Source of the DNA: Escherichia coli
GTDB lineage: Bacteria; Pseudomonadota; Gammaproteobacteria; Enterobacterales; Enterobacteriaceae
Strand: one strand, 5' to 3'
NCBI RefSeq assembly: GCF_016026235.1
Contig: NZ_CP065613.1
Length of the DNA: 64,000 nucleotides
In this document: one piece after another, positions 10,924 to 63,088 of the stretch
How positions within the stretch are numbered: the first letter of the stretch is position 1
Layout of the letters: every line of letters starts with the position of its first letter
The notes under the pieces: model-generated
Databases searched by the model: none
Told to the model about the DNA's origin: nothing
What the model saw: the letters and a program-made list of their open reading frames with translations, nothing else
Position numbers and translations under genes: made by a program

Positions 10924-12021
10924 ATGAAAGGACGTTGGGTAAAGTACCTTCTTATGGGCACGGTTGTGGCAATGCTTGCCGCCTGCTCTTCCAAACCAAC
11001 CGATCGCGGACAGCAATATAAAGACGGGAAATTTACCCAGCCTTTCTCTCTGGTGAACCAGCCAGATGCCGTTGGCGCGCCGATTAACGCCGGTGATTTT
11101 GCCGAGCAAATTAACCATATCCGTAATTCATCACCGCGTCTGTATGGCAACCAGAGTAATGTTTATAACGCGGTGCAAGAGTGGCTGCGCGCAGGCGGTG
11201 ATACCCGCAATATGCGCCAGTTCGGCATTGATGCCTGGCAGATGGAAGGTGCCGACAATTATGGTAACGTGCAGTTTACAGGCTATTACACGCCGGTAAT
11301 TCAGGCGCGCCATACCCGCCAGGGCGAGTTCCAGTATCCGATTTACCGTATGCCGCCAAAACGTGGTCGTCTGCCGTCTCGTGCGGAGATCTACGCGGGG
11401 GCATTGAGCGATAAATACATCCTCGCTTACAGCAACTCTCTGATGGATAATTTCATTATGGATGTGCAGGGTAGTGGGTATATCGACTTTGGTGATGGCA
11501 GTCCGCTTAACTTTTTCAGCTATGCAGGGAAAAACGGTCATGCCTATCGCAGCATTGGTAAGGTGCTGATCGACCGTGGCGAAGTGAAAAAAGAAGATAT
11601 GTCGATGCAGGCGATTCGTCACTGGGGCGAAACACACAGTGAAGCCGAGGTTCGCGAGCTGCTGGAACAGAACCCGTCTTTCGTTTTCTTTAAACCGCAA
11701 TCTTTTGCACCGGTGAAAGGGGCAAGTGCGGTGCCGCTGGTTGGCCGTGCTTCTGTTGCCTCTGATCGTTCAATTATTCCGCCAGGTACAACCTTGCTGG
11801 CAGAAGTGCCGCTGCTGGATAATAACGGCAAATTTAACGGTCAGTATGAACTGCGTCTGATGGTGGCACTGGATGTCGGTGGCGCAATCAAAGGCCAACA
11901 CTTCGATATCTATCAAGGGATCGGGCCGGAAGCCGGACACCGCGCAGGTTGGTACAACCACTATGGACGTGTCTGGGTGCTGAAAACGGCTCCGGGCGCA
12001 GGTAACGTCTTTAGCGGCTGA
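10924..12021 (+). CDS. mltA: Membrane-bound lytic murein transglycosylase A (lipoprotein)
   Basis: 365 aa from ATG 10924 (MKGRWVKYLLMGTVVAMLAACSS lipobox); the track ORF 10642.. is an upstream extension running through the tRNA genes. Confidence 0.9.
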   Translation: MKGRWVKYLLMGTVVAMLAACSSKPTDRGQQYKDGKFTQPFSLVNQPDAVGAPINAGDFAEQINHIRNSSPRLYGNQSNVYNAVQEWLRAGGDTRNMRQFGIDAWQMEGADNYGNVQFTGYYTPVIQARHTRQGEFQYPIYRMPPKRGRLPSRAEIYAGALSDKYILAYSNSLMDNFIMDVQGSGYIDFGDGSPLNFFSYAGKNGHAYRSIGKVLIDRGEVKKEDMSMQAIRHWGETHSEAEVRELLEQNPSFVFFKPQSFAPVKGASAVPLVGRASVASDRSIIPPGTTLLAEVPLLDNNGKFNGQYELRLMVALDVGGAIKGQHFDIYQGIGPEAGHRAGWYNHYGRVWVLKTAPGAGNVFSG

Positions 12022-58423: not shown

Positions 58424-59902
58424 TTACGCATTCGACCAGCTCTGGATCGAATCCGCATTCCCCAATTCCCCATGCATCACTTCATACGATTTTTTCAGGA
58501 TCACATCAGTATGTTTGGTTAGGTCTTTGAAAATGCCTTTATTCATCGCGTCGTAGCGTTTGGCATTGCTCTCAACAGGCATAAAGATATCTTTCACGCG
58601 AACCATTTTGTCGACAGCCGTTGCGTAATCCGGGTATAGCCCCAGACCTACCGCCGTATTGATCGCTGCCCCCAGACTTGCACAACCGTTAATGGCGTTA
58701 CGGCGTGCCGGAAGGTTGAACACGTCGGCAAAAATTTGCATAAACAGATCGCTGTTCGAACCGCCGCCAGTAATGATCACATGCTTTGCAAAGTGATTCA
58801 TTTCATTACACATATTGTCGTAATTGTTCTTCAGCGTCAGCGCCACGCTTTCCAGTATCGAACGATATATCCATGCGTAATCCATGCTGGAATCAAAGCC
58901 GATCATAATCCCGCGTTTGTACGGTTCCCACGGATTGGTCAGCCAGTCCAGCACCGTCATCAGCCCATTACAGCCAGGTGGCACACTAGAGGCTTTCTTG
59001 TTGAGTAAATCTTCCGGTGAAAGATCCTGAGCCCTGGCATCCTGAATTAACGACTCGCCTAGCATGTCGCGCAGCCAGCTCACCGTCCACATGCCTTTGC
59101 GAATACCGTAACCTTCATACAGCAATGTTTGCGGAATAGAAGACATAATCGGCCAGTACGCCACCGGATCTTTCGGCAGTGCTTTGCCGTTCATCATCAA
59201 TGCGATGTAAGTGCCAAGAGAAATTACCGCAGTTTCATCATCCAGTAATCCGGCCCCCAGAGCTTCTACCGGTTTATCACTGGTGGTACAAACAACCGGC
59301 AGTCCTGCCGGGAAATGTGTCGCCAGTGCGGCTTGTGGTGTGATATGTCCGAGGACGGTGCCAGGCATTTGCACATCAAACAGCATATGACGGGGGATAT
59401 TAAACTTCTCCATTACCGCAGCATCTTCGCTCCATGCCCAGCTCTTATAATCCACCGGCCACTGACCAAAATAGTTGGCGATATTGTCTTTAAACTCGCC
59501 GGTTAAGCGATGCGTCAGATAACCCGAAAAAGAGGTGACATAGGCCACGTCAGGATTAGTGTGTTCGTAGGGACGCGTTACGCGTGCATCCTGCCAGCTA
59601 ATCAATGGCGCAGCTGGCGTGCCATCGGCTTTCAATAACGCACGGCAGCAACGGATGGATCCCAGACCAATACCGACAATATCTTCTTTATTCCCGGCAA
59701 ACTGACTCATCAAATCGTGACCGGCAAAACATAATGATGCCCATAAATCGTCGTCAGGATGTTCTGCGGTATCGGCATCTGGCGTGTGCATCGGCTGCAA
59801 TAAGCCTTTACCTTCGCAAACCACATTACCTTCCAGATCGTACATCACCACTTTTGTGCTCTGACTTCCGCCATCAATCCCTATGATGTATTTTTTCGAC
59901 AT
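58424..59902 (-). CDS. ygcE: FGGY-family sugar kinase YgcE
   Basis: 492 aa; MSKKYIIGIDGGSQSTKVVMYDLEG...; glycerol/xylulose-kinase-like. Confidence 0.85.
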   Translation of the reverse strand: MSKKYIIGIDGGSQSTKVVMYDLEGNVVCEGKGLLQPMHTPDADTAEHPDDDLWASLCFAGHDLMSQFAGNKEDIVGIGLGSIRCCRALLKADGTPAAPLISWQDARVTRPYEHTNPDVAYVTSFSGYLTHRLTGEFKDNIANYFGQWPVDYKSWAWSEDAAVMEKFNIPRHMLFDVQMPGTVLGHITPQAALATHFPAGLPVVCTTSDKPVEALGAGLLDDETAVISLGTYIALMMNGKALPKDPVAYWPIMSSIPQTLLYEGYGIRKGMWTVSWLRDMLGESLIQDARAQDLSPEDLLNKKASSVPPGCNGLMTVLDWLTNPWEPYKRGIMIGFDSSMDYAWIYRSILESVALTLKNNYDNMCNEMNHFAKHVIITGGGSNSDLFMQIFADVFNLPARRNAINGCASLGAAINTAVGLGLYPDYATAVDKMVRVKDIFMPVESNAKRYDAMNKGIFKDLTKHTDVILKKSYEVMHGELGNADSIQSWSNA

Positions 59903-59928: not shown

Positions 59929-61983
59929 TTACTTGCTGCTAGCTATTGCGGGGGCGCTATCAGCAGTACGAATTTTTTGGAACAGCAAAAAGGTAAAGAC
60001 GATCACCATGCCGAGCGCCGCCATGCCCATCAGCCACATATTGCGGTAGGCTTCTGCTGCGGGCAGGGTGTCTTGCCAGTGGCCGATAATTGGGTAAACG
60101 AAGACATCCGGCAGGAATCCTATCACCGAACAAATACCTACCGTGGTGCCCATAATGTAAGACGGTGTTCTCGCTTCGCCGGGGCAGGCCCAGTACAGTC
60201 CACGTGAGGCGTAGCAGGTGAATCCCAGCAGTAAAATCAGGCCAATCCCCATTGCGACCGATTGCGGGTTAGAGTTGGTAACAAGCAGGGCAGTCAGTGC
60301 CAGCAGGCCGATGATGGAAAGGATTTGGATCACGCGGGTAGGGGATTTCACTTTGCTGTAGGTGGTGATTATGCCGCCAAGTGGGCCGCACAGCGCGCGG
60401 AATATTTTGTTGATCACAATCCCCATGTAGCTCGCCGCCACCAGCGACATGCCGTACATTTCGGTCAGATAGTTGGTGGAGGTAATGACTCCAACTTATT
60501 GATAGTGTTTTATGTTCAGATAATGCCCGATGACTTTGTCATGCAGCTCCACCGATTTTGAGAACGACAGCGACTTCCGTCCCAGCCGTGCCAGGTGCTG
60601 CCTCAGATTCAGGTTATGCCGCTCAATTCGCTGCGTATATCGCTTGCTGATTACGTGCAGCTTTCCCTTCAGGCGGGATTCATACAGCGGCCAGCCATCC
60701 GTCATCCATATCACCACGTCAAAGGGTGACAGCAGGCTCATAAGACGCCCCAGCGTCGCCATAGTGCGTTCACCGAATACGTGCGCAACAACCGTCTTCC
60801 GGAGACTGTCATACGCGTAAAACAGCCAGCGCTGGCGCGATTTAGCCCCGACATAGCCCCACTGTTCGTCCATTTCCGCGCAGACGATGACGTCACTGCC
60901 CGGCTGTATGCGCGAGGTTACCGACTGCGGCCTGAGTTTTTTAAGTGACGTAAAATCGTGTTGAGGCCAACGCCCATAATGCGGGCAGTTGCCCGGCATC
61001 CAACGCCATTCATGGCCATATCAATGATTTTCTGGTGCGTACCGGGTTGAGAAGCGGTGTAAGTGAACTGCAGTTGCCATGTTTTACGGCAGTGAGAGCA
61101 GAGATAGCGCTGATGTCCGGCGGTGCTTTTGCCGTTACGCACCACCCCGTCAGTAGCTGAACAGGAGGGACAGCTGATAGAAACAGAAGCCACTGGAGCA
61201 CCTCAAAAACACCATCATACACTAAATCAGTAAGTTGGCAGCATCACCGTTGGTGGAGTAACTCAGAATGGCGTAGATGGTGAAGACACCAAAAATCACC
61301 ATGCTGCAATACCAGGTGGTGCTGATGCGCAAAACGGCCAGGATGTCGCTAAGCTGGAATGATTGTTTTTCTTCGTTATTGGCACTGCGCAGGTTGTTGT
61401 TATCGCTAACAAAAAACCAGCACAGAATCCCCAACAAGATGTAAACCACACTATAGATGATAATGACCGTTTTCAGGCTGGTGCTGTCATCCGGTGCAAA
61501 GCGAGAAAAAACCCACATGGTAAACACTGCCAGCGACATTACACCGACGCCGCGCAGCCCTTCCATCCAGCCCATAATTTTCCCTTGCTCGCTATGATCG
61601 CCAAGCAACGAGGCGGCTTTAATCGACACCGACCACAGCATTAAAATCGTCGTTATCGCAAATGCGACCTGAATACAGAGCATTACCCACAGCGGTGGAT
61701 ACGTTGCCATTAACAGACCCAGTAATCCGGTAATGATCATCGCGGAAGTAATCATTTTGCGATGTGAGAATTTATCGGCAATAACGCCGCTGGGGGCATA
61801 AAGAATAATAGCTGCAATACCAAAGGTACTCATTATTAAACCTATCTCGGTATTGCTGAATCCCATAAATTTCGCCATGGGAATTTGATAAATATAACGT
61901 AAATAAGCCAGGTCGAAACTAACGCCGCCGCTAAAACTAATTATCGCGAGGGTTATCCAACGGCGATATGAGTTGTGTTGCAT
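59929..61983 (-). pseudogene. yqcE: MFS transporter YqcE-like, disrupted by IS1
   Basis: N-terminal part 61249-61983 and C-terminal part 59929-60480 are in the same reading frame across a 768-bp IS1 plus 9-bp duplication; together ~425 aa. Confidence 0.8.
60481..61248 (-). mobile_element. IS1: IS1 insertion sequence (insA 60918-61193, insB 60496-60999)
   Basis: 768 bp; ends GGTAATGACTCCAACTTATTGAT (plus strand) and reverse complement of GGTGATGCTGCCAACTTACTGAT; InsA ([23 protein letters not shown]...) and InsB ORFs; 9-bp target duplication GTTGGTGGA at 60472-60480 and 61249-61257. Confidence 0.95.
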
Positions 61984-62234
61984 ATCGTATTCCCATTTGT
62001 AATAGACAAAAAAAAGAGAAAAGTAAGCCGCCCTTTCAGGTGGATTACTTTTCTCAGGTCTCTAGTAATTGAAATAATAAATAACATGGAAAGCAGAGGT
62101 GTTGTGTGAGAGTAATCACGCTTCTGCTTTTTAAAACTATTTGATAATGCGAATATCACACTGTGATTACGATCACATTAGCAGTTATGTCCTTATGCTA
62201 AAAATTATCTCCAGTTACCAGAGATAATGAGAAA

Positions 62235-62278
62235 GGTAACTTCCCTCTCGCGGGGGAAGTTACCTTTCTTTTTTTTTT
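62235..62278 (+). terminator. Hairpin plus T-tract in the ygcW 5' region (terminator- or attenuator-like)
   Basis: GGTAACTTCCCtctcgcGGGGAAGTTACC (11-bp perfect arms) followed by tttcttttttttttt, ending ~25 bp before the ygcW ATG. Confidence 0.5.
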
Positions 62279-62302
62279 GCCTTACGGAAATTGGAGCTAA
62301 CT

Positions 62303-63088
62303 ATGTCAATCGAATCTCTCAATGCGTTCTCAATGGATTTTTTCTCCCTGAAAGGTAAAACCGCAATTGTTACCGGCGGGAATAGCGGTTTAGGCCAGGC
62401 ATTTGCCATGGCGTTGGCCAAAGCAGGCGCAAATGTCTTTATTCCAAGTTTTGTCAAAGATAACGGCGAAACAAAGGAAATGATTGAAAATCAGGGTGTT
62501 GAGGTGGACTTCATGCAGGTGGATATCACCGCAGAAGGCGCGCCGCAGAAGATTATCGCTGCCTGCTGTGAGCGTTTCGGTACAGTTGATATTCTGGTTA
62601 ACAATGCCGGTATTTGTAAGCTGAATAAGGTGCTGGACTTCGGTCGTGCCGACTGGGATCCAATGATTGATGTGAACCTGACCGCCGCATTCGAGTTAAG
62701 CTACGAAGCGGCAAAAATTATGATCCCGCAGAAAAGCGGTAAAATCATTAATATCTGTTCATTGTTCTCTTACTTAGGTGGACAATGGTCACCTGCATAT
62801 TCTGCCACTAAACATGCTCTTGCCGGATTCACCAAAGCTTATTGTGATGAACTAGGTCAATATAATATTCAGGTAAATGGTATTGCCCCTGGCTATTATG
62901 CAACAGATATTACGCTGGCGACACGCAGTAATCCAGAAACCAATCAGCGCGTTCTTGATCATATTCCAGCAAACCGTTGGGGCGATACTCAGGATTTAAT
63001 GGGCGCTGCCGTATTCCTCGCAAGTCAGGCATCGAATTATGTCAACGGGCATTTATTAGTGGTCGATGGCGGTTATTTAGTGCGCTAA
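62303..63088 (+). CDS. ygcW: Short-chain dehydrogenase/reductase YgcW
   Basis: 261 aa from ATG 62303 (GGAG SD); TGGNSGLGQA Rossmann motif and YSATK catalytic motif. Confidence 0.85.
   Translation: MSIESLNAFSMDFFSLKGKTAIVTGGNSGLGQAFAMALAKAGANVFIPSFVKDNGETKEMIENQGVEVDFMQVDITAEGAPQKIIAACCERFGTVDILVNNAGICKLNKVLDFGRADWDPMIDVNLTAAFELSYEAAKIMIPQKSGKIINICSLFSYLGGQWSPAYSATKHALAGFTKAYCDELGQYNIQVNGIAPGYYATDITLATRSNPETNQRVLDHIPANRWGDTQDLMGAAVFLASQASNYVNGHLLVVDGGYLVR

Follow-up and report, generated by a model that had tools for sequence, protein, structure and literature searches.

In Bacillus subtilis, the antiterminator protein GlpP, together with glycerol-3-phosphate, binds the leader of glpD and prevents termination of transcription (PMC7430163; PMC9604022). 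Here, we analyzed a 64,000-nucleotide (nt) stretch of Escherichia coli DNA (hereafter the window; RefSeq assembly GCF_016026235.1, contig NZ_CP065613.1) and in it a terminator-like hairpin in the 5' leader of ygcW, a gene for a short-chain dehydrogenase/reductase (SDR). GlpP-type systems are, to our knowledge, otherwise known only from Firmicutes. The ygcW-leader hairpin is very probably a conditional terminator within a conserved attenuator. Our fuller reading, to which we give a probability of roughly 0.75, is that it forms the default-on intrinsic terminator of a protein-responsive attenuator in front of the ygcW operon, that YgcP, a protein of family PF04309, overrides it, and that the same device precedes the divergent yqcE-ygcE operon. 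It is probable that E. coli and other Enterobacterales use GlpP-type antitermination, with a regulon that is new and an RNA motif that is distinct.

An earlier note on this DNA, made from the sequence alone, described a perfect 11-bp stem followed by a long T-run about 25 bp before ygcW. GGTAACTTCCC (62235-62245) is fully complementary to GGGAAGTTACC (62254-62264), as the note had it; the stem itself was undercounted, as the perfect arms are 16 nt long (62230-62245 and 62254-62269) and the complete structure is larger:

62229 to 62270, plus strand: terminator hairpin of ygcW, 19 bp counting G-U pairs, with the 4-nt loop UCGC at 62248-62251.
62269 to 62278, plus strand: U-run of the ygcW terminator, T10 here and T9 in K-12.

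The minimum free energy of the hairpin was -31.7 kcal/mol, compared to -16.1 +/- 2.9 kcal/mol for 200 dinucleotide shuffles, none of which was as stable (z = -5.4), and six terminator-like sites were observed in a 700-nt stretch where 0.6 were expected. A stable 19-bp stem-loop with T10 directly after it has the form of an intrinsic terminator. From the T10, 24 nt (GGAG among them) lead to the ygcW ATG at 62303, in agreement with the distance reported earlier. The note was also correct that no upstream gene on the same strand could use the hairpin: the upstream neighbor, yqcE, is divergent, and this rules the structure out as the terminator at a gene end.

RNA 3' ends at this position have been published. 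Term-seq data for E. coli K-12 grown in lysogeny broth (LB) (Adams et al. 2021, PMC7815308, supplementary files 1 and 3) were placed on the window through an alignment of K-12 with the window (A1), and the flanks printed in the tables are exactly the ygcW and yqcE leaders:

K-12 2900311, minus strand (window 62264): RNA 3' end, mean of 40,640 reads, -38 relative to the ygcW start codon, Rho score 0.50 ("No"), intrinsic score 15.8 (PMC7815308).
K-12 2900556, plus strand (window 62019): RNA 3' end, mean of 1,557 reads, -36 relative to the yqcE ATG, Rho score 0.61 ("No"), intrinsic score 11.4 (PMC7815308).

Both leaders thus carry Rho-insensitive 3' ends in vivo. The presence of 3' ends at the hairpin indicates that transcripts begin upstream of it and stop there. 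The earlier suggestion of a small-RNA 3' end at the hairpin is borne out by the abundant Rho-independent end at 62264, and the finding that would have spoken against it, a ygcW start downstream of the hairpin, is not what the data indicate, since Term-seq transcripts run into the structure (PMC7815308). In the catalogue, both ends are classed as "orphan / upstream ORF" (open reading frame) and the "regulatory element" column is empty for them; "ygcW" is absent from the main text of that paper (PMC7815308).

To define the extent of conservation, one genome per species was scanned for YgcW relatives, yielding 80 loci. A motif of ~74 nt was present in 109 instances (99 distinct sequences, aligned as A2) from ~45 Enterobacterales and ~12 Firmicutes, and sits upstream of ygcW orthologues or their operons, directly after the predicted promoter. 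In Enterobacterales (Escherichia, Citrobacter, Klebsiella, Serratia, Rahnella, Pantoea/Erwinia, Budvicia, and others), the motif occurs before ygcW and, divergently, before the neighboring transporter gene; in Firmicutes (Clostridia, Tissierellia, Cohnella, and Sporomusa), there are two or three copies per cluster. The consensus reads (A/G)UUAC-Y-AGAG-N4-5-GAGAAAAG-UAAC-[variable upper stem and loop]-UUrC-UUUUCUC-U7-9. A covariance model (R1) built from the 99 distinct sequences scored family members at 41-85 bits and ordinary terminators at unrelated loci at no more than 33 bits. In a scan of the region with Rfam 15, all matches were noise (best match 25 bits, where the gathering score is 90; E = 0.27). 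Of 5,426 complete E. coli genomes, 5,063 carry the ygcW-leader element at >=95% identity; the median is two places per genome, and in the RefSeq annotation of those 5,063 genomes no feature lies under it. In Limnobaculum eriocheiris (L033:2399-2476), the divergent motifs are seemingly fused into one palindromic terminator between A9 and T9, with both antiterminator halves gone; this element looks like the product of recombination between inverted copies.

Within the window, R1 detected exactly two copies, and the same search found no further copies in the 64 kb or in the 18-kb K-12 cluster:

62205 to 62278, plus strand: whole ygcW-leader motif, 85.3 bits.
62008 to 62078, minus strand: second motif copy, in the yqcE leader (inverted repeat I2), 78.6 bits.

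The yqcE leader (minus strand, 62069-62008) reads AUUACUAGAGACCUGAGAAAAGUAAUCCACCUGAAAGGGCGGCUUACUUUUCUCUUUUUUUU. Its antiterminator is formed by AUUACU (62069-62064) and AGUAAU (62049-62044), its terminator arms span 62055-62039 and 62032-62016, and its U-run occupies 62015-62008.

The terminator helix is maintained across the family. On A2 it is 90% paired, with double changes at 9 of 17 pairs; the paired fraction and the covariation score exceeded those of 500/500 shuffles and of all slid controls, and the RNAalifold consensus structure is the same helix. G-U pairs are frequent (U-G in 51 and U-A in 46 sequences at one pair; G-U in 15 sequences at another), suggesting that selection acts on the RNA and not on a palindrome in the DNA. 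At A2 columns 38/68, a mismatch in the terminator (mostly C.C or U.C) is conserved in 67/99 sequences; its 5' base pairs in the antiterminator. At this position the stem of the E. coli ygcW copy is, unusually, perfect.

A second helix competes for the 5' arm of the terminator:

62213 to 62219, plus strand: antiterminator 5' strand AGUUACC, pairing with 62235-62241; the same sequence as part of the terminator 3' arm.
62235 to 62241, plus strand: antiterminator 3' strand GGUAACU, also the middle of the terminator 5' arm, a shared and mutually exclusive segment.
62220 to 62234, plus strand: antiterminator loop AGAGAUAAUGAGAAA, which contains the invariant AGAG and GAGAAA boxes; the proposed YgcP recognition site.

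Pairs of this helix were counted on anchored strands, as MAFFT misplaced 13 variants with long loops. The 6-bp core was paired in 98-100% of the 99 distinct instances, a level reached by 0/10,000 shuffles. Two positions are fully compensatory (G-C in 65 and A-U in 33 sequences; C-G in 24 and U-A in 71), and the switches recur in both phyla and in both "ygcW-type" and "yqcE-type" copies. A covarying alternative helix that reuses the terminator 5' arm gives the element the build of an attenuator and supports the attenuator that the earlier note had held possible. By itself, the antiterminator is weak (mean of -4 kcal/mol; -6.4 kcal/mol in ygcW) compared to the full element (mean of -27 kcal/mol), suggesting that termination is the default and that some factor must stabilize the antiterminator. 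Termination as the default agrees with the abundance of the ygcW-leader 3' end in LB.

Conservation in the loop goes beyond base pairing. The invariant columns of A2 are G17, G19, G25-A28, A30, and G32, corresponding to AGAG and GAGA-A-G boxes, and GAG(A/U)-N3-4-GAGA was present in 84 of the 99 ygc instances, compared to a background of 0.057 per kb. In the loop and in the GAGAAAAG part of the terminator stem, the bases themselves are fixed, beyond what pairing alone would demand, which points to sequence-specific recognition.

A candidate for the recognizing factor is encoded in the cluster itself. YgcP, encoded 6 kb from ygcW in K-12, matches PF04309, "glycerol-3-phosphate responsive antiterminator" (E = 1.4e-62; related PDB entries 3kts and 1vkf). 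The K-12 gene has carried this annotation for decades, and we know of no target for it; our search of the literature on ygcP and the ygc cluster found nothing functional. A PF04309 gene lies within 10 kb in 13/13 inspectable motif-bearing clusters (K-12, L041/50/54/55/58/62/64/74/78, L086, L087, and L092); it was found at ten loci by tblastn and on contigs L053, L060, and L059 after 10-kb flanks were fetched. Conversely, Halalkalibacter oceani (L091) has a homologous cluster of betaine/choline/carnitine transporter (BCCT), SDR, FGGY kinase, and flavin adenine dinucleotide (FAD)-oxidase genes with neither the motif nor a PF04309 gene (ygcP). This cluster adjoins a sensor kinase and a sigma-54 activator, that is, a sigma-54 two-component system, in what looks like a replacement of the regulator. 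L059/L090, initially taken as a motif-less control, was dropped when the motif and ygcP were found further upstream, leaving L091 as the only true negative.

The Firmicute clusters share the E. coli enzyme set: SDR, FGGY kinase, FAD-linked oxidase, and electron transfer flavoprotein (ETF) alpha and beta. YgcW is 71-80% identical between E. coli and Firmicute contigs L086, L087, and L092, which suggests that the cluster moved laterally between Firmicutes and Enterobacterales along with its regulator and RNA motif. For YgcP orthologues, tblastn gave 50-62% identity when E. coli was compared with the Firmicute clusters; the match of YgcP to Listeria GlpP (3kts) is much weaker (E = 1e-27). On the same three Firmicute contigs, BCCT transporters replace the major facilitator superfamily (MFS) transporter and the FAD-oxidase/ETF module is duplicated.

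Upstream of both leaders lie predicted promoters with sites for the cyclic AMP (cAMP) receptor protein, CRP:

62162 to 62177, no strand assigned: perfect CRP site TGTGATTACGATCACA, centered ~41.5-43.5 bp upstream of the predicted ygcW start.
62196 to 62204, plus strand: predicted extended -10 element of ygcW, TG-c-TAAAAA (TGcTAAAAA), with a predicted start at ~62211-62213.
62105 to 62120, no strand assigned: CRP-like site TGTGAGAGTAATCACG (inverted repeat I3), centered ~41.5 bp upstream of the predicted yqcE start.
62083 to 62078, minus strand: predicted yqcE -10 element TATTTA, with TG at 62086-62085 and a predicted start at ~62071.

The site at 62162-62177 was predicted earlier by PhyloScan (PMC1794230) and is bound by CRP in vivo in enterotoxigenic E. 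coli H10407 (chromatin immunoprecipitation; PMC4287617) and in vitro in K-12 with a dissociation constant of ~1.7 nM (Footprint-seq; PMC12871828). Relative to the predicted ygcW start, it would have class II geometry. The CRP papers did not resolve the site at 62105-62120 as a separate one. Every orthologous leader has a -10-like hexamer (TGnTA.../TATAAT-like) whose end lies 7-9 nt ahead of the motif's first conserved base, and in Firmicute leaders this hexamer is near-consensus TATAAT. On the minus strand inside the ygcW leader, a sigma-70-like match pointing toward yqcE (TTCTCA-18-GATAAT, 62204-62233) coincides with a yqcE promoter predicted with an H-NS-bound spacer (PMC3946193); it is at odds with the yqcE start deduced from conservation.

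We propose the following mechanism. CRP-cAMP would switch on the two back-to-back promoters, and each transcript would start, within 1-2 nt, with the weak 6-7 bp antiterminator hairpin (~-6 kcal/mol in ygcW), whose 14-15 nt loop would present the invariant boxes AGAG and GAGAAAAG. By default, the stronger terminator (-32 kcal/mol) would capture the shared GGUAACU segment, polymerase would halt in the U-run, and a leader RNA of ~50-65 nt would be released and accumulate. Effector-loaded YgcP would instead bind the antiterminator hairpin with its GAGA boxes and stabilize it; the terminator's lower half would then be blocked, allowing read-through into ygcW-ygcU-ygcS-ygcR-ygcQ and yqcE-ygcE. The effector is probably the phosphorylated compound made by YgcE, the FGGY kinase of the cluster, on the model of GlpK, glycerol-3-phosphate, and GlpP. 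Given that the regulated genes are not glp genes and include a dedicated FGGY kinase, it is likely to be a compound other than glycerol-3-phosphate.

Several points weigh against this proposal. The binding of YgcP to the leader RNA, the effector, and the regulated read-through are steps that we infer, and the transcription starts of ygcW and yqcE are predicted rather than taken from mapped 5' ends. The Term-seq ends fall short of the U-run, at positions 5 nt (ygcW) and 3 nt (yqcE) within the A-U-rich foot of the extended stem; we suspect trimming after termination, which is a guess. Model R1 scored canonical GlpP leaders at 9.5-19 bits, not above generic terminators. In addition, ygcP lies outside the 64-kb window, and insertion sequences (IS) interrupt yqcE and ygcU in this strain, such that the system may be decaying here and both elements may be relics.

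The conserved unpaired nucleotides, found in two phyla within a 5' untranslated region (UTR) whose terminator could serve as an expression platform, would also fit a riboswitch in which the ~29-nt 5'-terminal hairpin, with its AGAG/GAGAAAAG loop, is a tiny aptamer for a metabolite of the cluster and YgcP is not the sensor and has another role. As the element matches no known family, this would be a new riboswitch class in E. coli K-12. We consider it unlikely, given that the candidate aptamer amounts to one hairpin of 6-7 bp whose loop has 13-19 nt, that 13 instances tolerate a 3-nt insertion between the stem and the first box, and that the motif co-occurs with a PF04309 gene in all inspectable clusters and shares its boxes and layout with GlpP-controlled leaders. 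Somewhat less plausible still is an unregulated premature terminator whose product is a stable ~50-nt trans-acting small RNA (sRNA), either Hfq/ProQ-dependent or a sponge, with ygcW expressed by leaky read-through. The RNA does end in a terminator and U-tail, its 40,640 reads make the 3' end very abundant in LB, and other products of 5' UTR termination act in trans (Adams et al., PMC7815308); such a function could coexist with YgcP-controlled attenuation. As the sole explanation, however, it leaves the covarying antiterminator without a role, and the element is duplicated before both operons and travels with the cluster between phyla. The supplements derived from RIL-seq (sequencing of ligated, interacting RNAs) that were searched held no entry for it, which is a weak point because those data are incomplete.

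In E. coli, the 16-bp perfect palindrome just downstream of the promoter could also be taken for a DNA operator bound by a dimeric repressor of the divergent promoters. This is very improbable and was rejected on the G-U covariation: elsewhere, the arms pair through G-U and compensatory changes that destroy the DNA symmetry, most species have a stem mismatch, the U-run is strand specific, and RNA 3' ends map to the site. Least credible of all is attenuation by a leader peptide translated from AUG 62227, the start of a 43-codon ORF (62227-62358) that begins within the antiterminator loop. This ORF has no Shine-Dalgarno sequence and enters ygcW out of frame, and we rejected it because its AUG is not conserved (CUG or CAG in yqcE copies; UUGAGAG or CCGAGAG in Firmicutes).

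The genes around the two elements are arranged as follows:

58424 to 59902, minus strand: ygcE, FGGY kinase.
Start codon 61983, minus strand: yqcE, MFS transporter gene, split by IS1.
62303 to 63088 (ATG 62303), plus strand: ygcW, SDR oxidoreductase, first gene of the controlled operon.

A 319-bp intergenic region separates the divergent yqcE (minus strand) and ygcW (plus strand). In K-12, ygcW-ygcU-ygcS-ygcR-ygcQ (ygcW-U-S-R-Q) form one operon and yqcE-ygcE the opposite one. In the window, IS1 (60496-61221; InsA and InsB ORFs; PF03811, PF12759, and PF03400) lies inside yqcE, the MFS transporter gene that the second attenuator would control, and splits it. In addition, ygcU (63158-63964 region) is cut after ~150 codons, retaining only the start of its FAD_binding_4 domain. 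The cut gene is followed by a 118-amino-acid ORF on the minus strand (63608-63964) that matches nothing in Pfam and seems to be where another insertion sequence ends. With yqcE and ygcU both hit by insertion sequences, the two operons downstream of the attenuators are disrupted in this strain, raising the question of whether this is Shigella-like decay.

Parts of this picture are already known: a public table lists the 3' ends, binding of CRP has been reported in print, and YgcP has long been annotated as PF04309. We found no description of the attenuator, its twin, the RNA family, or the link to YgcP in papers, Rfam, or genome annotation. The earlier note, for its part, gave the stem too short and did not mention the twin element of the yqcE leader, either CRP site, how widely the motif is conserved, or the connection to ygcP as a GlpP-family gene. 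With these data, ygcP gains two precise candidate RNA targets with mapped 3' ends, before both operons of the sugar-like catabolic ygc cluster. The function of ygcP and of the cluster becomes directly testable, and induction of read-through could serve to trace the cluster substrate. The analysis also defines an RNA family of ~100 distinct instances that is lacking from Rfam, and the regulatory module as a whole seems to have passed from one to the other of Firmicutes and Enterobacterales along with the catabolic genes.

Among described systems, the antiterminators of the BglG/SacY/LicT type resemble the ygc element in that a weak hairpin of ~29 nt (the ribonucleic antiterminator [RAT]) is stabilized by a protein and overlaps the 5' arm of a leader terminator; they likewise control catabolic operons and are present in E. 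coli (bgl). In contrast, the RAT consensus and its two-bulge structure are absent from the ygc element (judged by eye), the ygc protein belongs to PF04309, and none of the 17 annotated features of the K-12 cluster is a CAT-PRD (coantiterminator and phosphotransferase system regulation domain) gene. HutP, TRAP, and PyrR share the use of repeated short purine-rich boxes (NAG/GAG) beside or within terminator/antiterminator alternatives (PMC2425495); they differ in fold, repeat number, and spacing, the cluster has no such genes, and the Rfam PyrR and other models are unmatched. The catalogue of premature termination in 5' UTRs by Adams et al. 2021 lists both 3' ends, whereas the antiterminator, the family, and the link to YgcP are not described there.

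The closest relatives are the GlpP leaders. As a canonical set (n = 8), we took the B. subtilis glpD 5' UTR (PMC9604022, Table S4) and seven glpF/glpD leaders adjoining canonical glpP genes in Priestia, Lysinibacillus, Bacillus, and Paenibacillus (L083:8565-8740 and 11128-11296; L085; L088; L089). All eight have an AAGUU(A/C)AUA box right after the start site and share one order (8/8): the -10 hexamer, ~7 nt, AAGUU(A/C)AUA, a few nt, and a helix 5' strand (GGU or GUG), followed by a purine loop (typically (A/G)GAGA-N3-4-GAGAGA), an ACC or CAC helix strand that opens the terminator 5' arm, and the U-run. Pairing of this helix was judged by eye and is weak in some leaders, such as Priestia glpF. 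GAG(A/U)-N3-4-GAGA occurs in 6/8, 16-19 nt after the 5' box and just before the terminator arm, against the same background of 0.057 per kb, and the loop of a Bacillus sp. glpD leader, AGAGAAUCGAGAGACC, is close to the ygc loop AGAGACGAUGAGAAAAG. This suggests a common recognition code for PF04309 proteins, consisting of tandem GAGA boxes in the antiterminator loop and a 5' AGUUA box. Rfam holds no family for canonical GlpP leaders. Treating the ygc and canonical leaders as one RNA family was not adopted, as R1 fails to cross-detect them; with R1 blind to the canonical leaders, the sequence kinship rests on the short boxes and the common architecture.

The ygc system can be set beside the GlpP system of B. 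subtilis (glpD, glpFK, and glpTQ). In both, the PF04309 protein is encoded with the regulated genes, and a leader with a strong intrinsic terminator begins directly after the promoter. In both leaders, the loop of a short helix consists of purines and carries tandem GAGA boxes spaced 7-8 nt; the 3' strand of this helix opens the terminator 5' arm, and an AGUUA-type box lies at the RNA 5' end. They differ in that the ygc element is compact, its AGUUAC box serving as the antiterminator 5' strand where ~8-10 extra nt are present in canonical leaders, and in that the second box is GAGAAAAG in ygc and GAGAGACC in canonical GlpP leaders. The YgcP orthologues form their own subgroup apart from canonical GlpP, and the genes regulated encode an SDR, FGGY kinase, FAD oxidase, ETF, and transporters rather than glp functions. 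In E. coli, moreover, the control is placed on top of CRP promoters of predicted class II geometry. Judged by its sequence, the ygc element follows the same plan and carries the same short boxes as the GlpP leaders, yet appears as a compact class distinct from them.

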